Shown: positions 1 through 12,701 of the stretch, in pieces
Numbering within the stretch: position 1 is the stretch's first letter
Layout: the number at the start of each line of letters is the position of its first letter
Source of the DNA: a virus
Lineage: Duplodnaviria; Heunggongvirae; Uroviricota; Caudoviricetes
Reading direction: 5' to 3' (one strand)
Virus record (IMG/VR): IMGVR_UViG_2526164633_000018
Location: 1-13,238 of that record
Length of the DNA: 13,238 nt
Program-made: the position numbers and the translations under genes
Notes under the pieces: model-generated
What the model was told of the DNA's origin: nothing
Seen by the model: only the letters and a program-made list of their open reading frames with translations
Database searches by the model: none

Positions 1-4
1 GGGA

Positions 5-322
5 ATGACGTTCCCGGAACTGTATGACGACAGCCATCCGGAAGCCCTGGCCCGTAATACCCAGAAAATTTTCCGTTGGCTGGATAAAGACACCCCTGAT
101 GCTGTTGAAAAAATGCAGGCTCTGTTACCGGCGATCGAAAAGGCGATGCCGCCTTTGCTGGTGGCCCGTATGCGCAGCCACAGTTCTGAATATTACCGTG
201 AGATCGTCGAACGGAGGGATCGGCTGGTGAAGGATGTCGATGATTTTGTTGCGTCAGCGGTTGTTTTGTATGACCAGATGAATCGCGGCGGCCCGGCAGG
301 GAATGCTGTGGTGATGCACTAA
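5..322 (+). CDS. Phage early-region protein, probably 5'-truncated at the window edge; possibly a CII/YdaT-like regulator
   Basis: Reading frame is open back to nt 2 with no visible RBS, so the true start probably lies upstream of the window. Stop TAA at 320-322. It sits directly upstream of the replication initiator, as ydaT does in Rac-type modules. The family assignment is inference from position only. Confidence 0.4.
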   Translation: MTFPELYDDSHPEALARNTQKIFRWLDKDTPDAVEKMQALLPAIEKAMPPLLVARMRSHSSEYYREIVERRDRLVKDVDDFVASAVVLYDQMNRGGPAGNAVVMH

Positions 323-344
323 AAGCACGGTGTTCGGGGGTTTT

Positions 345-1493
345 ATGAGCAGCAAGCTTCATGGTCTTGTCTGGGAAGGGTGCGCCTTCACCGGCATGAT
401 CTTATCCAGGGTGGCGGTTATGGCCCGTCTTGCAGACTACAGCAATGACGAGGGCGTGTCATGGCCTGCCATTGAAACTATCCGGCGTCAGATCGGTGCA
501 AGAAGTGAATCCACAGTGAAATCGGCTATTGCAGAACTGGCGAAAGAGGGCTGGCTGACGAAGGAAGAGCGTAAGGTCGGTGGGCGTAATGTAAGCAATA
601 TCTATCGGCTTAATGTGGAAAAACTCGAAGCAGCTGCGGCGGCGGCGCGTGAGTCATATAAACCGAAAAGAAAAATTAGCCCGGCAAAAAATGACCCGTT
701 AACAGTTGACCCGTCAAATATTGACCCCTCAACGGTTGACCCGTCAAATTTTGATGGATCAACTGTTGATAAAAAACTGCCGATTAGGGGGGCGATGATT
801 GACCCCGATCCGTCAGTATTAAAACCTGATCCGTCAGATAAAAGATCTTCTTGTCCGGACGCTTCGCAACCGGACCCGCAGACGGCTGAACAGGATTTTT
901 TAACCCGACACCCTGACGCGGTTGTGTTCAGTGCGAAAAAACGCCAGTGGGGAAGTCAGGAAGATTTGGTGTGCGCACAGTGGATCTGGGGACGAATCGT
1001 GAGTCTTTACGAGCAGGCGGCCAGCGATGATGGCGAGATCACTAGACCGAAAGAACCCAACTGGACAGCATGGGCCAATGACGTTCGCACAATGCGGATG
1101 CTGGATGGCAGAACTCACAGACAAATTTGTGAAATGTTTGGGCGTCTCCAGCGGGATTCGTTCTGGGTAAAAAACATCATGAGTCCGGCAAAACTCCGGG
1201 AAAAATGGGATGAACTGGTTATCCGCCTGGGGCGTTCGCCTGCGCAGCGTTGCGTGAATCACATTTCTGAACCGGACACTGAAATACCGCCGGGATTCGA
1301 GGGGGTGACGTGTCATGAAAAACATTGCGGCAGGTTGGGGTTCTTGAACGTATTCGCAGACTTGCACCGACAGGGGTCGCTCCACCGTACCGGACGGTGG
1401 AGGAGTGGCGGGAATGGCAACTTGCTGAAGGACGAAAACGCAGCGAGGAGATTAACCGCCAGAATCGCCAGTTGCGGGTGGAAAAAATCCTGA
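345..1493 (+). CDS. Replication initiator (O-like): N-terminal HTH domain plus a C-terminal region resembling primosomal protein DnaT
   Basis: ATG at 345 follows a G-rich SD (cggggg, 335-340); the six-frame ORF opens at GTG 330. The N-terminus (ARLADYSNDEGVSWPAIETIRRQIGARSESTVKSAIAELAKEGWL) looks like an HTH. The C-terminal motif SEPDTEIPPGFEG matches my recollection of the DnaT C-terminus (…SEPDSQIPPGFRG). The last ~60 codons (VTCHEKHCGRLG…) are rich in C/H/R/G/W and look like an out-of-frame read-through into the next gene. Confidence 0.7.
   Translation: MSSKLHGLVWEGCAFTGMILSRVAVMARLADYSNDEGVSWPAIETIRRQIGARSESTVKSAIAELAKEGWLTKEERKVGGRNVSNIYRLNVEKLEAAAAAARESYKPKRKISPAKNDPLTVDPSNIDPSTVDPSNFDGSTVDKKLPIRGAMIDPDPSVLKPDPSDKRSSCPDASQPDPQTAEQDFLTRHPDAVVFSAKKRQWGSQEDLVCAQWIWGRIVSLYEQAASDDGEITRPKEPNWTAWANDVRTMRMLDGRTHRQICEMFGRLQRDSFWVKNIMSPAKLREKWDELVIRLGRSPAQRCVNHISEPDTEIPPGFEGVTCHEKHCGRLGFLNVFADLHRQGSLHRTGRWRSGGNGNLLKDENAARRLTARIASCGWKKS
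692..766 (+). repeat. Iteron array inside the initiator gene: five tandem 15-bp repeats (TGACCCGTCAANNNT consensus), putative origin of replication
   Basis: Direct repeats tgacccgttaacagt / tgacccgtcaaatat / tgacccctcaacggt / tgacccgtcaaattt / tgatggatcaactgt, each with an internal TGAC..GTCA dyad. An A-rich stretch (tgataaaaaactg) and two gatccgtcag repeats follow at 767-830. At protein level this encodes the (V/I)DPS(N/T) repeat. Lambda's ori lies inside O in the same way. Confidence 0.55.
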
Positions 1494-2062
1494 ATCGTTC
1501 GGGCATCCAGCCTCTGCACAGCAAATGCTCGTTTGCAAATTATCAGGTGCAGAACGACGGGCAAAAATACGCGCTGAGCCAGGCCAAATCCATAGCTGAC
1601 GAACTGATGACCGGGTGCACGAATTTTGTGTTCAGCGGTAAAACCGGCACCGGGAAAAATCACCTTGCAGCGGCGATGGGCAACCGGCTGATGGTGAAGG
1701 GGCGCAGCGTGATTATCGTCACCGTGTCTGACGTCATGAGCGTGTTGCATGACAGCTACGACAACGGCAAATCCGGGGAAAAATTTTTACAGGAGCTTTG
1801 CGGGGTTGATTTGCTGGTCCTGGATGAAATAGGCGTTCAGCGGGAGACGAAAAACGAGCAGGTGGTATTGCACCAGATAATTGATCGCCGGACAGCATCA
1901 CTGTGCAGTGTCGGGATGTTAACAAACCTGAATCATGCCGCAATGAGTACGCTTCTTGGTGAGAGGATTATGGACCGCATGACCATGAACGGTGGTCGAT
2001 GGGTGACGTTTAACTGGGATAGCTGGCGTCCAAATGTCAGCAATATGAGGGTTGTGAAGTAA
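1325..2062 (+). CDS. DnaC-like helicase loader (AAA+ ATPase, IstB/DnaC family); start uncertain and N-terminus apparently frame-disrupted
   Basis: Collinear similarity to E. coli DnaC as I recall it: Walker A FSGKTGTGKNHLAAA, Walker B LLVLDEIG, C-terminal WVTFNWDSWR. The six-frame ORF opens with TTG at 1325 with no SD. A well-placed ATG at 1315 (SD gaggggg 1299-1305) encodes MKNIAAGWGS then stops, in a different frame. Stop TAA at 2060-2062. Confidence 0.75.
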   Translation: MRQVGVLERIRRLAPTGVAPPYRTVEEWREWQLAEGRKRSEEINRQNRQLRVEKILNRSGIQPLHSKCSFANYQVQNDGQKYALSQAKSIADELMTGCTNFVFSGKTGTGKNHLAAAMGNRLMVKGRSVIIVTVSDVMSVLHDSYDNGKSGEKFLQELCGVDLLVLDEIGVQRETKNEQVVLHQIIDRRTASLCSVGMLTNLNHAAMSTLLGERIMDRMTMNGGRWVTFNWDSWRPNVSNMRVVK

Positions 2063-2083
2063 TTTTGTCCGGAGGAAATTTTA

Positions 2084-2287
2084 ATGGAAACCGTATCTGA
2101 CGCACTGAAAGCACTGAAAAAAGCCTCTTCACATGTGGTGGCAGCTCGCCTTGGAATCAGTCGTGAAGAGGCTGTCAACGAGCTGTGGGAACTCAAAAGA
2201 AATGGCGTCGTTGATAAAACTGGTCACACCTGGTTCTGGCTGGCGAAGGTGAATCCGGGTAACCGAAGAGCGGCCAGTAAAATCTGA
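2084..2287 (+). CDS. Small hypothetical protein (67 aa), winged-helix-like
   Basis: ATG at 2084 follows SD GGAGG (2071-2075) with 8-nt spacing. Motif [19 protein letters not shown] resembles an HTH. Compact genes on the same strand on both sides. Confidence 0.55.
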
Positions 2288-2297
2288 AGCACAGGAT

Positions 2298-2552
2298 ATG
2301 CTGACCGGGGAGGTCGAACAAAAAGTTACCGCAGACATGATGATTGAGTTTATCGGTCAGGATGGGGCTAAAACGTGTGAGGAACTGGCGGGTAAGTTCG
2401 GTGTCAGTACTCGCAAGGTTGCTTCCACGCTGGCGGTGGTAACCGCAACGGGGCGGCTGGCACGCGTTAATCAGAACGGTAAATTTCGTTACTGCATGCC
2501 GGGCGATAATTTACCAGCAGAGCCGAAAAGCCGCGCTGGTAACGGAAAGTGA
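2298..2552 (+). CDS. Small hypothetical protein (84 aa), winged-helix-like paralog of the preceding ORF
   Basis: ORF immediately follows the previous gene. Motif ELAGKFGVSTRKVASTLAVVTATG is HTH-like. The SD is weak, and an in-frame ATG at 2337 is an alternative start. Confidence 0.5.
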   Translation: MLTGEVEQKVTADMMIEFIGQDGAKTCEELAGKFGVSTRKVASTLAVVTATGRLARVNQNGKFRYCMPGDNLPAEPKSRAGNGK

Positions 2553-2634
2553 TGGTAAGGCCTTTCCTCAGCCAGCAGGTGCTGCGTTACCAGGCCGGGA
2601 AGCCGCAACACAGGAAGAAATTAAAACAGAAACT

Positions 2635-2853
2635 GTGGCGGACATTGTGCAGTCGTTGCCATCGTTTACCGAAACGCAAGCAGATGAGCTGATTTTTCCG
2701 TCCCTGCGCAGGGCAAACCTGGCGCTGCGCAGGGCGAAAAGTGATGTTCAGAAGTGGGAGCGAGTCTGCGCCGCGCTGCGGGAGCTGAACAAGCACCGGG
2801 ATATTGTTCGACAGATTACTGATTCTTCCCGCCGTGTTGTATCGGAAAAGTGA
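2635..2853 (+). CDS. Hypothetical protein (72 aa)
   Basis: ORF with a GTG start and no convincing SD. It fills the gap between flanking genes on the same strand, but the start and reality of the gene are uncertain. Confidence 0.3.
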   Translation: MADIVQSLPSFTETQADELIFPSLRRANLALRRAKSDVQKWERVCAALRELNKHRDIVRQITDSSRRVVSEK

Positions 2854-2868
2854 TTGCCGGAGGCGCTT

Positions 2869-3291
2869 ATGGCAAAAGTATTTACACAAGAAGAGCGGGA
2901 AAAAATTAAAGGGCAGGTTGTTGAGCTAGTACGCCGGAGTGGGCGCGAGACGTTACGGCAACTGGAAGCCAAGACAGGTGCGACAAGATATCTGATGAGT
3001 GTTCTCGCCAGAGAGCTGGTTGCCAGTGGCGATGTATACAACTCTGGTTACGGGTTATTCCCGTCTGAACAGGCGCGTAAGGACTGGCAAAACGCCCGCA
3101 AAAAACTCTCAAGGGCAAATCTGAAGAAACCATCTGTGGTTGATCCTGACCTTATCTGGCCATTACCAGACGGAGAAATACGCCGCTACGACAGGCGTCA
3201 AAACATAATCTGTAGCGAGTGCCGGAAGAGCGAAGCTATGCAGCGTGTACTGGCTTTCTATCAGGGTAATTTTCAGAAGGTGCTGTTGTGA
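2869..3291 (+). CDS. Hypothetical protein (140 aa) with an N-terminal winged-helix-like region and a C-terminal Cys-containing segment
   Basis: ATG at 2869 follows SD GGAGG (2859-2863); the six-frame ORF opens 5 codons earlier at 2854. Motif LRQLEAKTGATRYLMSVLARELVASG. Stop TGA at 3289-3291. Confidence 0.55.
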   Translation: MAKVFTQEEREKIKGQVVELVRRSGRETLRQLEAKTGATRYLMSVLARELVASGDVYNSGYGLFPSEQARKDWQNARKKLSRANLKKPSVVDPDLIWPLPDGEIRRYDRRQNIICSECRKSEAMQRVLAFYQGNFQKVLL

Positions 3292-3396
3292 GCCAAATTA
3301 ACAATCGGAACTTCGTGAAGAGAAAGCATAATCCAAATCTGAATAATTAAGTTCAGCACTGTAAATAAAATTTAATCCTTAACTGGAGGTATATCT

Positions 3397-3609
3397 ATGT
3401 CAAATACACAGAAAATTATTAACACTGAAAAATATAACGAGTGGGTGAAAAAATTCTCTGAGCAGATTTTTAAAATTACTGGCGACGAGAATGTGGCAAA
3501 AAATGAATTGGAACCGTGGACACCTGAAGGAAACGCACCAAATTATTGCTGGTGGGAGGTTGATCCGGTTGATGCTGCAAATGAAGCCATGAGTTACCAC
3601 AACGATTAA
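3397..3609 (+). CDS. Cassette gene A1: small acidic hypothetical protein (70 aa)
   Basis: Strong SD (ctggaggt) 7 nt upstream of ATG 3397. Intact paralog at 4663-4875 with about 9 of 70 residues different. Stop TAA at 3607-3609. Confidence 0.6.
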   Translation: MSNTQKIINTEKYNEWVKKFSEQIFKITGDENVAKNELEPWTPEGNAPNYCWWEVDPVDAANEAMSYHND

Positions 3610-3641
3610 TGTCGGGAGGCCGCCCGAAAGGGCGGTAAGAA

Positions 3642-3860
3642 ATGACTACATTATTCAGAAAAGAATATCCGCAAAAAAGTAGGGCGACAGAATTTTTGTT
3701 TCTCATTCTGTTTATCGTATTGATGATACCGATATCCCCTCTAATTTTTGTCTGGGCAATCGGGAAAATAATTGAGCCAGTTACTGAATTGTATAACGAC
3801 GTGGTATGGGCGTCATTCAACACACTGCACAATAAAATTAATCCGTATAAGGAAAACTGA
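3642..3860 (+). CDS. Cassette gene B1: small membrane protein (72 aa, one predicted TM helix)
   Basis: ATG at 3642 lies just downstream of a GC hairpin (gccgccc-gaaa-gggcggt) that follows a gggagg motif. Hydrophobic core FLFLILFIVLMIPISPLIFVWAIG. Stop TGA at 3858-3860 sits 1 nt before the next ATG. Confidence 0.5.
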   Translation: MTTLFRKEYPQKSRATEFLFLILFIVLMIPISPLIFVWAIGKIIEPVTELYNDVVWASFNTLHNKINPYKEN

Positions 3861-3861
3861 T

Positions 3862-4124
3862 ATGGCAACTTTGACAAAAAAGAACGGGCATGGTTGAACG
3901 AATTACAGGAAGTTCTTGATCGCTGTCCATCACCGAAAAAAATTGGCTTTTACACCATTGGCGATAAAAGCATTTACCTGTATGACCTACGCCGCATGGA
4001 TGAAATCATGGAGGCTCTTGATAATCGTTCGTCGATGGATTGGTGTGTTGCTGTTCATGATATGAATGCAGGGTTTGATGAAAAGATTTTGTTCCCCTCA
4101 TCAGTTGAAAGCACTGCGGGTTAA
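3862..4124 (+). pseudogene. Cassette gene C1, frameshifted in an A-tract (A6 here versus A7 in the intact paralog)
   Basis: ATG 3862 with the same SD context as C2, but atg gca act ttg aca aaa aag aac ggg cat ggt tga stops after 11 codons. The rest of the protein (NELQEVLDRCPSPKK…STAG) is intact in the +1 frame from TTG 3894. The paralog at 5127-5390 reads MATLTKKERAWLNELQ… uninterrupted. Confidence 0.45.
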
Positions 4125-4255
4125 GGAGTAACACATGACCACTATTACCAAAGAACGTATTGAATTGTTCATTAAATTTTCAGGAGGCGGTACTGTGAGT
4201 GAAATTAGCTATCAGGCTTCAATTACCGCTGGCATTCGCATCAAAGGAGAGGAGC

Positions 4256-4612
4256 ATGGAAATAAAACCAGAGGATGAGTTAAGCAATATCGTTTTATTT
4301 CCGGTAAAAGAGGATGACCCTCGTAATCAGGTTAATTTTCTTTATGAGCCATCGGAAAGACCATATTGCCATCACGCCTCTGTTCGGGTTGACGAAAAAG
4401 AGCGTCAGGTCCGCTGTAAAATCTGCGGTGCAGTTGTGGAGCCGTTTGACTGGATGCTCTCTGTGGCGAAAAGAGAAACCAGACTGGCAGATGATGTAAG
4501 GCTATTGCGCCAGGAGGAACAGGAAAGGCGGAAAAATATAGAAAAGTTAATTCAGATTGAGCGTAACGCGAAAGCGCGGATACGCAGGGCGACAAAATCC
4601 AGAACTGAATAA
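4256..4612 (+). CDS. Hypothetical zinc-ribbon-like protein (118 aa) with a basic, probably coiled-coil C-terminus
   Basis: ATG 4256 follows SD aggagaggag (4244-4253). Motifs PYCHH…CKICG are candidate metal ligands. C-terminus is rich in R/K/E/Q. Lies in the unique segment between the two cassette copies. The six-frame ORF opens upstream at 4199. Confidence 0.55.
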   Translation: MEIKPEDELSNIVLFPVKEDDPRNQVNFLYEPSERPYCHHASVRVDEKERQVRCKICGAVVEPFDWMLSVAKRETRLADDVRLLRQEEQERRKNIEKLIQIERNAKARIRRATKSRTE

Positions 4613-4662
4613 ATAAATTTAGCGCTGTAAATAAAATCTAATCCTTAACTGGAGGTATATTT

Positions 4663-4907: not shown

Positions 4908-5124
4908 ATGGTCACATTATTTAGAAAAAATATCCGCGAAAGAGTAGAACAACAGAATTTCTGTTTCTCATTCTGTTTATCGTGTTGATGATACCGATAT
5001 CCCCGTTAATCCTAGCCTGGATAATCGGAAAAATAATTGAGCCAGTTATTGAATTGTATAACGACGTGGTATGGGCGTCATTCAACACACTGCACAATAA
5101 AATTAATCCGTATAAGGAAAACTG
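4908..5124 (+). pseudogene. Cassette gene B2, frameshifted by a 1-nt deletion in an A-rich tract
   Basis: ATG 4908 aligns with the B1 start. U1 reads agaaaagaatatccg where U2 reads agaaaaaatatccg, so the frame runs MVTLFRKNIRERVEQQNFCFSFCLSC then stops at 4986-4988. The TM-encoding remainder is only open in another frame, ending at TGA 5122-5124. Confidence 0.4.
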
Positions 5125-6690: not shown

Positions 6691-6735
6691 TGTAGGTTAG
6701 CCTCTTACGTGCCGAAAGGCAAGGAGAAGCAGGCT

Positions 6736-6891
6736 ATGAAGCAGCAAAAGGCGATGTTAATCGCCCTGATCGTCATCTGTTTAACCGTCATAGTGACGGC
6801 ACTGGTAACGAGGAAAGACCTCTGCGAGGTACGAATCCGAACCGGCCAGACGGAGGTCGCTGTCTTCACAGCTTACGAACCTGAGGAGTAA
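6736..6891 (+). CDS. hokD: Hok/Gef-family type I toxin (51 aa), HokD/RelF-like
   Basis: Translation MKQQKAMLIALIVICLTVIVTALVTRKDLCEVRIRTGQTEVAVFTAYEPEE matches the Hok family (TM helix plus the conserved periplasmic tail) and, from memory, HokD/RelF specifically. SD aaggagaag lies upstream. The six-frame ORF opens at an upstream in-frame ATG (6679). Confidence 0.85.
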   Translation: MKQQKAMLIALIVICLTVIVTALVTRKDLCEVRIRTGQTEVAVFTAYEPEE

Positions 6892-6958
6892 GAGACCAGG
6901 CGGGGGAGAATCCCTCGCCACCTCTGATGTGTCAGGCATCCTCAACGCACCCGCACTT

Positions 6959-6985
6959 AACCCGCTTCGGCGGGTTTTGTTTTTT
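6959..6985 (+). terminator. Rho-independent terminator ending the hok transcript
   Basis: Stem aacccgc / gcgggtt with loop ttcg, followed by ttttgtttttt. Confidence 0.6.
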
Positions 6986-7057
6986 CCTAGCATTCTGGTT
7001 TACAATTCGCACGCCAGCCTGAACAACTGGCACCTGCTGCGCCAGCAGAGACAACCG

Positions 7058-7336
7058 ATGGCGCACGATACCAAATTACACAATTCTGATGATTCTGCCG
7101 TCTTTGCCAGCAGGCACGGGCGGCGTTCCCGCACTTTCAAATCTGACTGGTTCCAGCATCCCCCATGCACTGAAGAACAGGCCGAGTGGCTAATTCAGTG
7201 CTACCGCAGACACGGATACGAGATTAAGAAAGCCCTCAGCCTCGATTATCGTCACTGGATAATCTCCGTCAGGCTTCCTTACTCCGAGCGCCCACCGCGT
7301 CCGTCCCGCACATTCCAGCAACGCATCTGGAGGTAA
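7058..7336 (+). CDS. Hypothetical protein (92 aa); by position possibly equivalent to the Qin-prophage rem gene
   Basis: ATG 7058 lies inside a longer six-frame ORF (6929-7336) whose upstream part overlaps the hok terminator. It sits between hok and the DUF968 gene, as rem sits between hokD and ydfU in Qin. The rem assignment is from synteny only. Confidence 0.45.
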   Translation: MAHDTKLHNSDDSAVFASRHGRRSRTFKSDWFQHPPCTEEQAEWLIQCYRRHGYEIKKALSLDYRHWIISVRLPYSERPPRPSRTFQQRIWR

Positions 7337-7337
7337 C

Positions 7338-8387
7338 GTGCGGGTATTACTTCGACCTGTTCTGGTACCGGAACTCGGGCTGGTGATCGTTAAGCCGGGC
7401 CGTGAATCCATGCCGGTATTCCACAATACCCGGGTACTGGTGGAGCCGGAACCGAAAAGCATGCGTAATCTGCCGTCCGGGGTTGTTCCTGCCGTTCACC
7501 AGCCGCTAGTGGAAGACAAAACATTGCTGCCGTTTTTCAGTAACGCACGGGTGATTCGTGCTGCTGGTGGTGCTGGTGCATTGTCTGACTGGCTGTTGCG
7601 CCATATTAAATCCTGCCAGTGGCCACACGGCGATTATCATCACAGCGAAACCGTCATTCACCGTTATGGTACCGGCGCAATGGTGTTGTGCTGGCACTGC
7701 GACAACCAGCTGCGTGACCAGACATCCGAATCACTCGGGCAACTTGCTCACCAAAATTTGTCAGCATGGATGATTGACGTCATACGCCATGCAATGAATG
7801 GCACGCAGGAGCGGGAATTATCTCTGGGTGAATTATCCTGGTGGGCGGTCTGCAATCAGGTGGCGGACGCGCTTCCGGAGGCAGTATTACGTCGTTCTCT
7901 GGGGTTACGTGCGGAAAAAATCCGCCCCTTGTACCGCGAAAGCGACATCGTACCGGGAGAGCAGACCGCCATCAGCATACTGAAACAGCGCACAAAAAAT
8001 CTTGCGCCGCTGCCTCACGCCCACCAGCAACAGAACCCACCACAGGAAAAGACGGTGGTCAGCATTGCCGTTGATCCTGAGCCTCCGGAATCTTTCATGA
8101 AACGACCTAAACGTCGCCGCTGGGTTAACGAGAAATACACACGCTGGGTGAAGACTCAGCCGTGTGCGTGTTGTGGTAAGCCAGCCGACGATCCCCATCA
8201 CCTGATTGGTCATGGTCAGGGCGGAATGGGGACAAAATCTCACGATATTTTCACGCTACCGCTGTGTCGGGAGCATCACAACGAGCTTCATGCGGATCCG
8301 CTGGCGTTCGAAGAAAAGCATGGCTCTCAGGTTGATTTAATTTTTCGTTTTCTTGATCACGCCTTTGCAACTGGCGTGCTTGGGTAA
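7338..8387 (+). CDS. DUF968-type phage protein (YdfU-like, 349 aa) with a C-terminal HNH-like Cys/His motif
   Basis: GTG 7338 follows SD GGAGG (7330-7334). C-terminus …WVKTQPCACCGKPADDPHHLIGHGQGGMGTKSHDIFTLPLCREHHNELH has HNH-type spacing of Cys/His ligands. Position between hok and rusA/Q matches Qin-like synteny. Confidence 0.7.
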   Translation: MRVLLRPVLVPELGLVIVKPGRESMPVFHNTRVLVEPEPKSMRNLPSGVVPAVHQPLVEDKTLLPFFSNARVIRAAGGAGALSDWLLRHIKSCQWPHGDYHHSETVIHRYGTGAMVLCWHCDNQLRDQTSESLGQLAHQNLSAWMIDVIRHAMNGTQERELSLGELSWWAVCNQVADALPEAVLRRSLGLRAEKIRPLYRESDIVPGEQTAISILKQRTKNLAPLPHAHQQQNPPQEKTVVSIAVDPEPPESFMKRPKRRRWVNEKYTRWVKTQPCACCGKPADDPHHLIGHGQGGMGTKSHDIFTLPLCREHHNELHADPLAFEEKHGSQVDLIFRFLDHAFATGVLG

Positions 8388-8399
8388 AAGAGGTGACTG

Positions 8400-8774
8400 A
8401 TGCTCATAGATTTGGTTTTACCTTACCCGCCAACGGTGAACACCTACTGGCGACGTCGTGGCAGCACATATTTTATCTCGGAGGAGGGAAAGCGTTATCG
8501 CCGGGCTGTGGCGCTTATTGTTCGCCAGCAGCGGCTGAAATTAATCCTGTCCGGAAGGCTGGCGATAAAGGTGATTGCAGAGCCACCGGATAAGCGTCGT
8601 CGCGACCTGGACAATATCCTGAAAGCACCGCTGGATGCGCTGACGCATGCGGGAGTGTTAATGGACGATGAGCAGTTTGATGAAATCAATATCGTTCGTG
8701 GTCAGCCAGTATCTGGTGGACGTCTGGGGGTGAAGATTTACCCCATAATGCTTGAAGGGCAGGTCAAAAAATGA
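8400..8774 (+). CDS. rusA: RusA-family Holliday-junction resolvase (124 aa)
   Basis: ATG 8400 follows SD agaggtg. Motif PDKRRRDLDNILKAPLDALTHAGVLMDDEQ matches the RusA catalytic region (recalled E. coli RusA …PDRRRRDLDNLQKA…). Stop overlaps the next gene start (ATGA at 8771-8774). Confidence 0.85.
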   Translation: MLIDLVLPYPPTVNTYWRRRGSTYFISEEGKRYRRAVALIVRQQRLKLILSGRLAIKVIAEPPDKRRRDLDNILKAPLDALTHAGVLMDDEQFDEINIVRGQPVSGGRLGVKIYPIMLEGQVKK

Positions 8775-9592
8775 AACTGGAAGATTTACCGAAATACTAC
8801 TCCCCAAAATCCCTCGGCCTGACTGATGCATCGGCCTCAACGTCGAAAGATACGCTGAGTATCACTGATGTGATGGCCGCGCAGGGCATGACACAGAATT
8901 GGGCTGAGATGGGGTTTTCTGCGTTCCTTGGGAAAATGGGCATTAGTATGAATGACAGAGAGCGGGCAACAGAATTGCTGACAGAATATGCACTCAGTCG
9001 GTGTGATCGCGTGGCGGCGTTAAGAAAACTCCCGGCAGAAATAAAACCGGCAGTGATGCGTATTATGGCTTCGTATGCGTTTGAAGATTATGCCCGTAGC
9101 GCGGCGAGCAAAAAACAGTGCCCCTGTTGTCACGGAAAAAAATTTATTGAAAGCGAGGTTTTTACAAACAAGATCCAGTATCCGGATGGTAAGCCGCCAG
9201 TGTGGGCAAAGTGCACAAAAGGAGTGTATCCGTCTTACTGGGAGGAATGGAAAAAAGTCAGGGAGGTGGTAAAAGTTGCCTGTCCGGAGTGTGGAGGGAA
9301 GGGAGAGGTATCCACTGCCTGTAAAGATTGTCGTGGGCGCGGTGTTGCCATTCATCGTGAAGAGTCGGTAAAACGTGGTATGCCTGTTATCAGAGACTGC
9401 CAGCGTTGTGGTGGTCGTGGCTATGAAAGATTACCTTCAACGGAGGCATTTAATGCCATATGTAATGTAACCGATGCCATATCTCTTGATACATGGAAAA
9501 AAACAGTTAAACGTTTTTACGATACGCTGGTGGTGCAGTTTGATATTGAAGAAGCATGGGCAGAACAACAACTGAAAAAGGTGACCAGATAG
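8771..9592 (+). CDS. Lambda-type late antiterminator Q (273 aa), longer than lambda Q
   Basis: Collinear with lambda Q as I recall it: SPKS…TDVMAA.GM…YA(F/Y)(E/A)DY.RSAA…Cys-rich zinc motifs…(F/L)YD.LVVQ…VTR at the C-terminus. It is followed immediately by a lambda PR'-like sequence. Confidence 0.85.
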   Translation: MKLEDLPKYYSPKSLGLTDASASTSKDTLSITDVMAAQGMTQNWAEMGFSAFLGKMGISMNDRERATELLTEYALSRCDRVAALRKLPAEIKPAVMRIMASYAFEDYARSAASKKQCPCCHGKKFIESEVFTNKIQYPDGKPPVWAKCTKGVYPSYWEEWKKVREVVKVACPECGGKGEVSTACKDCRGRGVAIHREESVKRGMPVIRDCQRCGGRGYERLPSTEAFNAICNVTDAISLDTWKKTVKRFYDTLVVQFDIEEAWAEQQLKKVTR

Positions 9593-9597
9593 CTTTG

Positions 9598-9633
9598 TTG
9601 ATTTTTCCCGAATCTGTGGTAAATTTGCCCTAA
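9598..9633 (+). promoter_or_regulatory. Late promoter PR' with probable qut / pause-inducing region
   Basis: -35 TTGATT (9598-9603), 16-bp spacer, -10 TAAATT (9620-9625). The segment ggtaaatttgccctaacgatggg closely resembles lambda PR' (ggtaaatttgactcaacgatggg, from memory). Predicted start is about 9632-9633. Confidence 0.6.
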
Positions 9634-9673
9634 CGATGGGCGTTTTATGCCTGACGTTAGAAGATTTTTTACA

Positions 9674-9696
9674 CCCGTCGCCAGGCGGGTTTTTTT
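9674..9696 (+). terminator. tR'-like rho-independent terminator downstream of PR'
   Basis: GC-rich hairpin cccgt / gcggg with a 6-nt loop, followed by T7 (9690-9696). Sits about 60 nt downstream of the predicted PR' start. Confidence 0.5.
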
Positions 9697-9741
9697 ATGA
9701 CTGAAATCACGCCAGTACAGTAAACGCGCTGGTGGTTGTGA

Positions 9742-10192
9742 ATACCGGTCTTTCAGCTTGCTGGCTTTTTCGACAAGAGTTATTGGTGTGTCACGTTAAC
9801 CGGAAAAAGGAAAGTTTGAGAAACGCGATCTGGCACAGGCGGTTATTAATGCTGCCTACCTGGTGGCCTGTGCAGATGGTGAATGTGAGGCTTCCTAGAA
9901 AGCGAAGATCGAACAGGTACTGCGTAATCAGCCTGCGCTGTCCGCGTTTACGTCAGAAATTAATGCGATTAGCGCAACCATTATCGGTCAGCTGGATACG
10001 AACTTTAAAACTGGTCGTCGTGCGGCGTTACGTGAGATCGAGGATGTGAAACACGATACGCGTGAAGCGGAAGATGTGCTGGATGTGGCGGTGGCCATTG
10101 CGGAGGCAGACGGCGAAATTGAGCCGGAAGAGCGCAAGGTGCTGGAAGAGATTGCCGGTGTTCTGGGTCTTCGTCTGGAGAATCACCTGTGA
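9742..10192 (+). pseudogene. Decayed TerB-like (tellurite-resistance TerB / DjlA-N-type) gene with an in-frame amber stop, a frameshift and no start codon
   Basis: Frame 2 reads …DLAQAVINAAYLVACADGECEAS*KAKIEQVL…AVAIAEADGEIEPEERKVLEEIAGVLGLRLENHL, showing two ADG-E…E repeats typical of TerB domains. A TAG at 9896-9898 falls where the second repeat has Glu. Upstream the frame closes at TAA 9797-9799 with no start, and the N-terminal-like segment GFFDKSYW… is in frame 1. Confidence 0.45.
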
Positions 10193-10320
10193 CGGTAAAA
10201 CTGCGCCTGGCTGTGGCTGCACTCCTGCTGTTTCTGGTGGTGATGGTGGATTTCACCAGCAGAATCATGTCGGTGCTGGCGGATGGGGTGCTGGTCTGCG
10301 GCATTGTGGTATTGCTGTAG
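10189..10320 (+). CDS. Possible small membrane protein (43 aa)
   Basis: GTG 10189 overlaps the TerB-like stop (GTGA) and follows SD ggaga (10176-10180). Peptide VTVKLRLAVAALLLFLVVMVDFTSRIMSVLADGVLVCGIVVLL is hydrophobic throughout. Not listed as its own ORF in the six-frame track; expression is uncertain given the upstream pseudogene. Confidence 0.3.
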   Translation: MTVKLRLAVAALLLFLVVMVDFTSRIMSVLADGVLVCGIVVLL

Positions 10321-10516
10321 CCGGTGATAAAAAGAAACAGCCTGCATAATGCTTGATTTTTTTATTTGCTGTTTATTAAAAATACTACTGCATGGTGAAT
10401 CCCCCTGTGCGGAGGGGCAATCAGCAAGTAGGTATATGTGATAATCGCGGATTCAGGTGCTGATACTGAATTCACCGGGAGGCACCCGGCACCATGCAAG
10501 AAAAAGAATGTGCATG

Positions 10517-10548
10517 CAAAAATGCCCCTCTCCGGAGGGGCATTTTTT
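10517..10548 (+). terminator. Strong rho-independent terminator, potentially bidirectional
   Basis: A-tract caaaaat, then 7-bp stem gcccctc / gaggggc with loop tccg, then atttttt. A second hairpin (gcccgaa-tggg-ttcgggc, 10562-10579) preceded by taaaaaa follows and is oriented for the minus strand. Confidence 0.6.
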
Positions 10549-10762
10549 ATGGGTAAAAAATGCCCGAATGGGTTCGGGCAATAGCATGAGATACTGATAT
10601 TGTTGTGTTGTTATCGTGTGGATTTTAACCAGGGTTTATCAGGCTGCGCAACTGCGTGGCCTTCTTCATTTCTTGGGCTGTAGTCCCCGTGTGTCATTCA
10701 GGCTTCCGGACTACAGCCCACTCCATATCTGATTTAATACACTATCCCGGCCGGGAGGAATA

Positions 10763-12616
10763 ATGACATTTAAACATTATGATGTTGTCAGGGCGGCGTC
10801 GCCGTCAGACCTTGCGGAAAAGCTGACACACAAACTGAAAGAGGGCTGGCAGCCGTTTGGTAGTCCGGTGGCCATAACCCCTTATACCCTGATGCAGGCG
10901 ATTACAGCAGAAGGTGATGTGGTGGTCAGTGGTGCAACTGAGCCGGATTGGTACTACGTCATCGTACTGGCCGGGCAGTCCAATGCCATGGCTTACGGTG
11001 AAGGGCTTCCGCTGCCGGATTCATACGATGCTCCGGATCCGCGCATTAAACAGCTGGCGCGCCGCAGTACAGTGACGCCGGGTGGGGCTGCCTGCAGATA
11101 TAACGATATTATTCCGGCCGACCACTGCCTGCATGATGTGCAGGATATGAGTACGCTGAATCATCCGAAGGCAGACCTGAGCAAAGGGCAGTACGGCTGT
11201 GTCGGCCAGGGCTTACATATTGCCAAAAAACTGCTTCCGTATATCCCGAATAACGCGGGGATCCTGCTGGCACCATGCTGTCGTGGTGGTTCGGCATTCA
11301 CCCAGGGCGCGGAGGGGACATTCAGTGCGGACACGGGGGCCAGCCAGGATTCGGCACGCTGGGGTGTGGGTAAACCGTTATATCAGGACCTGATTGCGCG
11401 CACTAAAGCTGCATTACAGAAGAACCCGAAAAATGTGTTGCTGGCGGTGTGCTGGATGCAGGGAGAGTTTGACATGAGCGCCGCCACCTACGCACAGCAA
11501 CCTGCGCTGTTTACAGCCATGCTGAAGCAGTTTCGTGCTGACCTCACTGTGTTTAACGCGCAGTGTCATGGTGGCAGTGCTGCAGATGTGCCGTGGATTT
11601 GTGGTGACACGACGTATTACTGGAAAAATACATACGCTACCCAGTACGACACCGTGTACGGCGGGTATAAAAACAGGGAGAGTGAGGGCGTTTATTTTGT
11701 GCCCTTCATGACAGACGGTAACGGCGTCAATACCGCCACTAACGCGCCGGCAGAAGATCCGGATATTCCGGCATCAGGATATTACGGTGCGGCATCGAGA
11801 ACGAATGGAAACCAGGTATCATCAAACCGCCCGACACATTTCAGTTCATGGGCGCGCAGGAGCATTATTCCGGATCGTCTGGCAACCGCTATTCTGAACG
11901 CAGCCGGGCGCACCTCAGCCTTCATCAGTGGTAAGGCACCGGAAATCAAACCCTCGCCCGGCGGCAACACGCCATCGGGTCCGTCTGCAGATACGTCCGT
12001 TCGCACAATCTCCCTGCTGCCGGCAGCCGGAGAGGCTGCTGCGCAGGGCTGGAGCATTAAGGATGGCGGAATTCAGTTGTCAGATGGTGTATTTAAGATC
12101 ACCAAGCAGAGCAATAAAACCTGGTCCCTGACGCATCCGGTGGATGACGCAATTACCCTGCTGACACAGGGCGGCAGACTGACCTGTAAGTTCCGCCTGT
12201 CAGGCGCACTGACCAACAATCAGTTCGGGCTGGGGATTTATCTGTATACGGATGCTCCCGTTCCTGATGGTGTGGCGATGACGGGTACCGGTAATCCGTT
12301 CCTGATGTCGTACTTCACTCAGACCACTGACGGCAGAGTGAATCTGATGCATCACAGGAAAGCCGGAAACACGAAGCTGGGGGAGTTCGGCGATTACGGT
12401 AACGACTGGCAGACGCTGGAGCTGGTGTTCACCGCCGGCAGTGCCACGGTTACTCCGAAACTGAATGGAGTGGCTGGCCCGGCATTCCAGGTTATAAAAG
12501 ACGGTCTGACACTGGGACTGAATGCGCTGACGCTGACGGATGTTACAAAAAATGCAGCGTATGGCGTTGAGATAGAAAGTCTGGTGCTGGAGATAAATGC
12601 ACCGGCATCATCATAA
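10763..12616 (+). CDS. Prophage sialate O-acetylesterase, NanS-p-like (617 aa): N-terminal DUF1737-like region, SGNH/SASA esterase domain, C-terminal extension
   Basis: ATG 10763 follows SD gggagg. N-terminus MTFKHYDVV…; esterase motif YVIVLAGQSNAMAYGEG (the GQSN block of sialate esterases). Size and position (after Q, before the holin) match nanS-p genes of Stx-type lambdoid phages. Confidence 0.8.
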   Translation: MTFKHYDVVRAASPSDLAEKLTHKLKEGWQPFGSPVAITPYTLMQAITAEGDVVVSGATEPDWYYVIVLAGQSNAMAYGEGLPLPDSYDAPDPRIKQLARRSTVTPGGAACRYNDIIPADHCLHDVQDMSTLNHPKADLSKGQYGCVGQGLHIAKKLLPYIPNNAGILLAPCCRGGSAFTQGAEGTFSADTGASQDSARWGVGKPLYQDLIARTKAALQKNPKNVLLAVCWMQGEFDMSAATYAQQPALFTAMLKQFRADLTVFNAQCHGGSAADVPWICGDTTYYWKNTYATQYDTVYGGYKNRESEGVYFVPFMTDGNGVNTATNAPAEDPDIPASGYYGAASRTNGNQVSSNRPTHFSSWARRSIIPDRLATAILNAAGRTSAFISGKAPEIKPSPGGNTPSGPSADTSVRTISLLPAAGEAAAQGWSIKDGGIQLSDGVFKITKQSNKTWSLTHPVDDAITLLTQGGRLTCKFRLSGALTNNQFGLGIYLYTDAPVPDGVAMTGTGNPFLMSYFTQTTDGRVNLMHHRKAGNTKLGEFGDYGNDWQTLELVFTAGSATVTPKLNGVAGPAFQVIKDGLTLGLNALTLTDVTKNAAYGVEIESLVLEINAPASS

Positions 12617-12701
12617 AAAGTGAGCCAGTCAAATGGAAGGTATCGTTAAACTCACCGGTAGTGTCAGTGGGTCGTCTGAGATGCCTGCATGAGTTATCAG
12701 A

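Follow-up and report, generated by a model that had tools for sequence, protein, structure and literature searches.

The closest described counterparts of this locus are the replication modules of lambdoid and Stx phages. Those compared here come from the Shigella phages POCJ13 and 75/02 Stx and from prophage copies in E. coli strains 12A and 4/1-1, and in all of them the initiator and loader genes meet at the same junction, a stop codon followed by a 6-nt spacer and an ATG. In the E. coli prophage copies the genes run in the order YdaT-family gene, HTH initiator, DnaC-like loader, DUF1627, and DUF977, an order that the DNA analyzed here shares, and in POCJ13 the pair is annotated as an initiator, 'primosomal protein I', and a loader, 'DnaC'. 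In lambda, ori sits within gene O.

Errors made in pyrosequencing have been sorted into extension, incomplete extension, and carry-forward classes (Huse et al. 2007, PMC2323236). Carry-forward inserts a base identical to that of an upcoming homopolymer, with at most two intervening bases, as in the example that 'GACTGGG could become GACGTGGG' (Huse et al. 2007, PMC2323236), and the mechanism has been restated by Gilles et al. 2011 (PMC3116506).

Set beside the intact modules, the locus described here is broken in frame where the initiator and loader genes meet. From comparison of the sequences, we judge with a probability of about 0.88 that the prophage itself has no such break and that a consensus error in the draft assembly created it.

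The initiator/loader junction as deposited

The window, by which we mean the whole stretch of DNA that was analyzed (13,238 bp), is the entire contig AIHB01000030.1 of draft assembly GCA_000250235.2, from E. coli DEC12B. Its initiator open reading frame (ORF; frame 0) opens at GTG 330 or ATG 345 and closes at TGA 1491-1493, reading on past ...EIPPGFEG (1290-1305) for 62 codons (VTCHEKHCGRLGF...CGWKKS), a count that includes the Val codon at 1306-1308; this run-on is rich in Cys, His, Arg, Gly, and Trp. The ATG at 1315 has AGGGGG (1300-1305) upstream with a 9-nt spacer, encodes MKNIAAGWGS, and meets a TGA at 1345-1347. As deposited, the only starts available to the DnaC-like frame are TTG 1325 and GTG 1397, from which it stays open through 2062, and this leaves the loader as the 245-aa TTG-1325 form or something shorter. 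The deposited gene calls (ECDEC12B_1938/1939 and neighbors) are a 357-aa 'initiator' (420..1493) and a 196-aa 'loader' (1472..2062), together with three pieces of the DUF1627 gene (2084..2287, 2298..2552, and 2635..2853), the last two with a DUF1627 Pfam hit. A first-pass annotation of this DNA had described the same break, with the ORF running to 1493, the ATG-1315 frame stopping at 1345-1347, and the loader frame opening at TTG 1325 or GTG 1397, and had recognized a good Shine-Dalgarno sequence for ATG 1315; our reading of the sequence agrees on each count. The frame discontinuity is a true property of the deposited sequence, not a misreading, and it is private to AIHB01000030.1.

Small indels had been offered as one explanation, and alignment to intact modules finds exactly two of them at the junction, one-base insertions at 1299 and 1333/1334. 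These lesions, their consequences, and a further pair of changes just downstream are as follows.

1299, + strand: extra G no. 1, probably spurious (TTC-G-AGGGGG; TTC-AGGGGG in intact copies)
1333/1334, + strand: extra G no. 2, probably spurious (GCAG-G-TTGGGG; GCAGGTTGGGG here, GCAGTTGGGG in intact copies)
1345..1347, + strand: TGA closing the 10-codon frame that opens at ATG 1315, a result of extra G no. 2
1309..1493, + strand: probably artefactual extension of the initiator ORF, the loader N-terminal region read out of frame
1369..1381, + strand: self-compensating pair, G gained at 1369, then GGTT>GCT at 1380-1381

It is the G at 1299 that turns FRG-stop into FEG with read-through, and the G at 1333/1334 that shifts the loader frame after codon 6. 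The intact homologues aligned (E. coli 4/1-1, O111:H2 strain 12A, and POCJ13, the last 81% identical) read TTC AGG GGG TGA/TAA, then 6 nt, then ATG AAA AAC ATT; the intact junction of strain 12A is TTCAGGGGGTGACGTGTCATG...GCAGTTGGGG. In the alignment, the G at 1299 is without counterpart in strain 12A, strain 4/1-1, RM14723, and phage POCJ13, and the frame of the extension is closed by the initiator stop in orthologues. An unusual overlap of the two genes, the third option raised in the first-pass annotation, is refuted by these orthologues, in which the initiator finishes with ...PPGFRG-stop and the loader ATG follows after 6 nt. Two places had been singled out for scrutiny of the reads. The GGGGG run at 1301-1305 proves unchanged in length, the extra base being the G at 1299, upstream of the A at 1300 that adjoins the run, and the interval 1320-1345 does hold the second lesion, a single extra G at 1333/1334. 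The shift introduced by the 1369/1380-81 pair is cancelled 11 nt on, such that four codons are altered (QGSV to TGVA) with no net shift.

Uniqueness of the lesions was assessed with queries of 43 to 45 nt centered on each junction lesion, which cannot seed without the variant base. No 28-mer spanning the 1299, 1334, or 1369-1381 lesions has a match in 5,426 complete E. coli genomes. A pattern allowing zero or one extra base at both junction sites retrieved 120 IMG/VR loci with this junction, none of which (0/120; all 0/0) has an extra G at 1299 or 1333/1334; GTDB species representatives gave no match to the junction pattern, even with zero extra bases allowed. The tail peptide (63 aa), compared with 5.8 billion proteins, retrieved no fused initiator and no real homologue, its sole match being a 71-aa partial spurious ORF with the last 29 residues in common. 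Exact copies of the fused ORFs (382 and 387 aa) and of the 245-aa TTG-start loader are likewise absent from the protein collection; the starts chosen in the deposited annotation differ from these (420..1493 and 1472..2062). We also considered the 1369/1380-81 pair as a natural allele of a paralogous prophage, and rejected it: no 28-mer spanning the pair occurs in the complete genomes, and a collection of 15 billion proteins has no loader with TGVA.

The corrected initiator, loader, and DUF1627 genes

With the single-base differences from intact copies reverted, the region is predicted to contain the following features, and a YdaT-family gene lies just upstream of the initiator.

345..1308, + strand: replication initiator, predicted true coding region, with an HTH_36 N-terminal domain and a DnaT-like C-terminal tail
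1300..1305, + strand: putative loader Shine-Dalgarno sequence AGGGGG, within the initiator's last codons and 9 nt before ATG 1315
1315..2062, + strand: DnaC-like helicase loader gene, predicted true start ATG 1315, 248 aa without the G at 1333/1334
2084..2853, + strand: DUF1627 gene, split as deposited into ORFs 2084-2287, 2298-2552, 2549-2692, and 2635-2853

Without the G at 1299, the initiator is 320 aa long and ends ...SEPDTEIPPGFRG (PPGFRG) at TGA 1306-1308, and at least 1000 contigs encode exactly this repaired product (P0062). It matches HTH_36 with 27.6 bits (cutoff, 25). Its C-terminal 21 residues (...NHISEPDTEIPPGFRG) align with residues 159-179 of E. coli DnaT (9zbt_D), the final 21 of that protein, and its C terminus also aligns to the C-terminal constructs 2ru8 and 6aep. 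The DnaT model (NF002770) nonetheless gives 16.8 bits versus a cutoff of 201, with a match only at positions 159-179 of 179, and the protein is predicted to be an initiator with a DnaT-like tail but not a DnaT. Inside the initiator gene, window positions 671-775 hold at least four direct repeats of a TTGACCCGTCAA-like unit with a 15-bp period, and positions 701-767 a 33-nt inverted repeat; the repeats encode DP(L/S)TVDPSN peptide repeats. The 15-bp-period repeats and the inverted repeat look like origin iterons placed inside the initiator gene, in the manner of lambda ori in O.

The corrected loader scores 506.3 bits with NF009043 (PRK12377; cutoff, 389) over positions 1-248 of 248, and 299.2 bits with the chromosomal DnaC equivalog NF005931, which is under the cutoff of 357; the IstB_IS21 domain (PF01695) is found with 68.6 bits. 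It aligns to residues 2-242 of E. coli DnaC (6qel_G; E=2.4e-74), with the Walker A motif GKTGTGKNHLA and the Walker B motif DLLVLDEIG of an AAA+ core in that alignment, and a 56-aa DnaC chain (6kza_C) matches its residues 2-57 (E=2.2e-4), such that its N-terminal region too is homologous to DnaC. By these scores it is predicted to be a paralogous phage loader of the prophage subfamily NF009043, not DnaC itself. With the 1334 lesion and the 1369/1380-81 pair reverted, the QGSA form of the loader is found on 2 contigs and the QGSV form on at least 1000 (P0077). The gene identities proposed in the first-pass annotation, an initiator with a DnaT-like C terminus and a DnaC-like loader, are borne out by these profile and structure-chain matches.

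With the Shine-Dalgarno sequence placed in the final codons of the initiator gene, and 6 nt between stop and ATG, initiator and loader are likely to be translationally coupled. Strain 12A and POCJ13 (81% DNA identity) retain this spacing of stop and ATG, and differences between the 12A and POCJ13 loaders fall at codon positions 1, 2, and 3 in numbers of 34:20:87, a bias that supports the single loader frame as the selected one. The DUF1627 gene is broken by TTT>TT at 2235, CCC>CC at 2256, and AAA>AAAA at 2529, and after these three single-base corrections it encodes an exact 256-aa protein found on 696 contigs (P0079).

Other assemblies also vary in this module. The G-run at about 1373-1376 (loader codons 19-21) has one-base length variants in other, independent assemblies, among them the complete genome CP043015.1 and a Logan assembly of SRR26139048, at loci L129-L134 and at 6 of 120 IMG/VR loci, and the loader is called there as 221 aa. 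The run could be either a true slippage hot spot or a site of recurrent sequencing error, and frameshifts in the loader's N-terminal region may sometimes be real. A 221-aa loader occurs in 56 blocks of the collection; we considered whether these carry the same lesion as the window, and they do not, reflecting one-base changes in other short base runs (mostly the G-run at about 1373-1376) or N runs at scaffold gaps. In E. coli RM14723 and HCP5S3_I4 (L003 and L004), which are the closest relatives of the window's right part, the loader and DUF1627 genes are absent (about 1307-2865) and DUF977 directly follows the initiator, a state suggestive of a true deletion within the replication module.

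A mosaic boundary lies at about 4369-4658. To its left the window is, indels aside, the potC-adjacent prophage of strain 12A, and to its right it diverges from that prophage and matches one of RM14723 type (98.3-99.9%); the boundary could represent either natural lambdoid mosaicism or a chimeric draft join. In the right part, positions 10046-10192 encode a 48-aa TerB-family fragment, whose counterpart in RM14723 and HCP5S3_I4 is annotated as a pseudogene interrupted by an internal stop, and this disruption, unlike the junction indels, appears real and shared.

Single-base differences along the contig

Over window positions 1-4368, comparison with the complete genome of E. coli O111:H2 strain 12A reveals no clean substitution and nine single-base events, which are listed here with the A-run affected by the last of them.

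1299: G inserted
1334: G inserted
1369: G inserted
1380: G>C, with loss of T at 1381
2235: T lost (TTT>TT)
2256: C lost (CCC>CC)
2529: A inserted (AAA>AAAA)
3875: A lost (A7>A6)
3875..3881, + strand: A-run one short, A6 versus A7, which takes away the beginning of a hypothetical gene of 87 aa

At least 13 complete genomes score alike over window positions 300-2900 (99.7%, 4758 bits), from isolates of unrelated hosts (dog, duck, chicken, human, and wastewater), and this common score implies that these events are all that separates the window from a widely shared sequence. Eight of the nine fall within 1299-2529, a density of 6.5 per kb. Compared with RM14723, positions 6722-12628 have zero indels, and there is a further A7>A6 undercall near 4928 (about 4922-4928).

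Each event is either a change in homopolymer length or a base identical to a same-base run 1-3 nt downstream. The G at 1299 is one base ahead of G5 (carry-forward class), the G at 1334 two ahead of G4 (carry-forward or extension class), and the G at 1369 three ahead of G4; positions no more than 4 nt from a run of at least four G's make up only 3.9% of this stretch, and the probability that all three G insertions fall there by chance is ∼6e-5. E. coli mutation spectra generally contain 10-25% indels, and if natural mutation had that share here, nine of nine events of indel type would have a probability of ∼1e-9 to 4e-6. The published definitions of pyrosequencing error (Huse et al. 2007) cover the events at 1299 (one intervening base), 1334 (two), 2235, 2256, 2529, and 3875; the insertion at 1369 is just outside them, with three intervening bases rather than at most two, and the C miscalled at 1380 matches the CC immediately after it, a run of only two bases. 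Sequencing error had been among the explanations first suggested, and it gains support from the lack of substitutions and from the seven similar differences in the next 2.6 kb; all of these events are homopolymer-associated, and no other assembly examined has any of them.

Explanations for the frame break and comparison with known systems

If the break is a consensus error, the two spurious G's at 1299 and 1333/1334 would remove the stop of the initiator and put the loader out of frame beyond codon 6, and the underlying locus would be an ordinary, intact, and tightly coupled early gene pair of a lambdoid prophage. Judging from what is known of these families, the initiator would bind the phage origin, probably at the repeats and 33-nt inverted repeat at 671-767 in its own gene, and would then recruit the DnaC-like loader, which would load host DnaB. 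Carry-forward and homopolymer miscalls, made during flow-based (454-type) base calling or while the consensus was built, are the source that we infer for the indels. The same laboratory then used either 454 with Celera or HiSeq with Velvet (PMC3715677), and the homopolymer signature would be harder to reconcile with HiSeq/Velvet.

Strain 12A and DEC12B are separate isolates, and a mutation private to DEC12B is formally a possibility. Were the events genuine mutations, the replication module of the DEC12B prophage would have been recently inactivated and be unable to replicate after induction: the initiator would carry a 62-residue junk tail, DUF1627 would be fragmented, and the loader would have lost its ribosome-binding site, its start codon, and the first residues of its DnaB-binding N-terminal domain. 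Decay of such modules is real, as illustrated by RM14723 and HCP5S3_I4, which have deleted the loader and DUF1627 entirely, and other assemblies with one-base G-run variants or scaffold-gap N runs yield 221-aa loader calls. We nevertheless consider inactivation by mutation, the one alternative with real weight, to be unlikely, in that nine indel-type events with zero clean substitutions in 4.4 kb is a very improbable outcome, all of the events lie in contexts prone to flow-sequencing error, none is common to another genome, and one pair compensates itself within 12 nt. About as unlikely is a genuine but localized burst of frameshifts in an otherwise pristine prophage, for example through an error-prone repair patch or a transient mutator state; such a burst would have knocked out three to four early genes in a row, at the end of the initiator, the start of the loader, DUF1627, and a small ORF, and the contig would be a snapshot of very recent prophage immobilization via the replication module.

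The contig is short and prophage-only, its left (1-4368) and right parts match different prophage types, and strain 12A has five places matching window positions 300-2900, all of which would suit an assembly artefact in which reads of paralogous prophage replication modules were collapsed, leaving indels where the copies differ. This is unlikely, since no donor copy is known, the variant 28-mers at the three junction lesions are absent from 5,426 complete E. coli genomes, and outside the indels the sequence is that of one copy throughout, with no single-nucleotide polymorphisms mixed in. We give almost no credence to a functional explanation, either a long true overlap or a programmed +1 frameshift at TCT-TGA (1342-1347, with GGGG before it), which would loosely resemble prfB. 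A slip at TCT/TGA would indeed rejoin the loader frame at L-E-R-I-R-R-L, and there is a G-rich tract immediately before it. UCU is not known to be a +1-slippery codon, however, and the G-tract spacing is 1 nt rather than the 3 nt of prfB. Moreover, the arrangement is not conserved (0/120 IMG/VR loci and none of 5,426 complete E. coli genomes), all orthologues examined encode the loader in a single frame, the extension peptide is without homologues, and neighboring genes bear the same type of lesion. The prfB-like appearance of 1337-1348 (GGGG-T-TCT-TGA-A) exists solely through the extra G, is absent from all orthologues, and was rejected as a signal.

A consensus error, the reading that we favor, makes this primarily a matter of data quality, and the fused and truncated gene calls should not be taken as a novel overlap, a pseudogenized module, or a defective prophage. 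As a rule, we suggest that frame breaks on short prophage contigs of early drafts be treated as artefacts until shown otherwise when three conditions hold jointly: they come without accompanying single-nucleotide polymorphisms, they lie at or just ahead of homopolymers, and they are gone in sister genomes. The underlying biology is already well represented, as a coupled dnaT-dnaC-shaped pair with origin-like repeats within the initiator gene.

The events resemble the 454 miscalls that make false frameshifts in draft genomes (PMC2323236, PMC3116506) in that same-base insertions precede homopolymers, run lengths err by one base, substitutions are rare, and errors cluster as they do in poor reads; they differ in the insertion at 1369, which is three bases from its run where the published limit is two.

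The corrected locus likewise resembles the E. coli dnaT-dnaC operon (DnaT, 179 aa, 9zbt_D; DnaC, 245 aa, 6qel). The upstream protein has a ...SEPDxxIPPGFRG tail, the downstream protein aligns to DnaC 2-242 with GK(T/P)GTGKNHLA (Walker A) and DLLV(L/I)DEIG (Walker B) as the motifs in the alignment, and the genes are adjacent and closely spaced. It departs from that operon in that the prophage initiator carries HTH_36 at its N terminus and is rich in repeats in its middle part, and in that the prophage loader is below the DnaC equivalog cutoff and belongs to NF009043. From the intact E. coli prophage copies, in contrast, the window appears to differ only by the two spurious G's and its other single-base errors.
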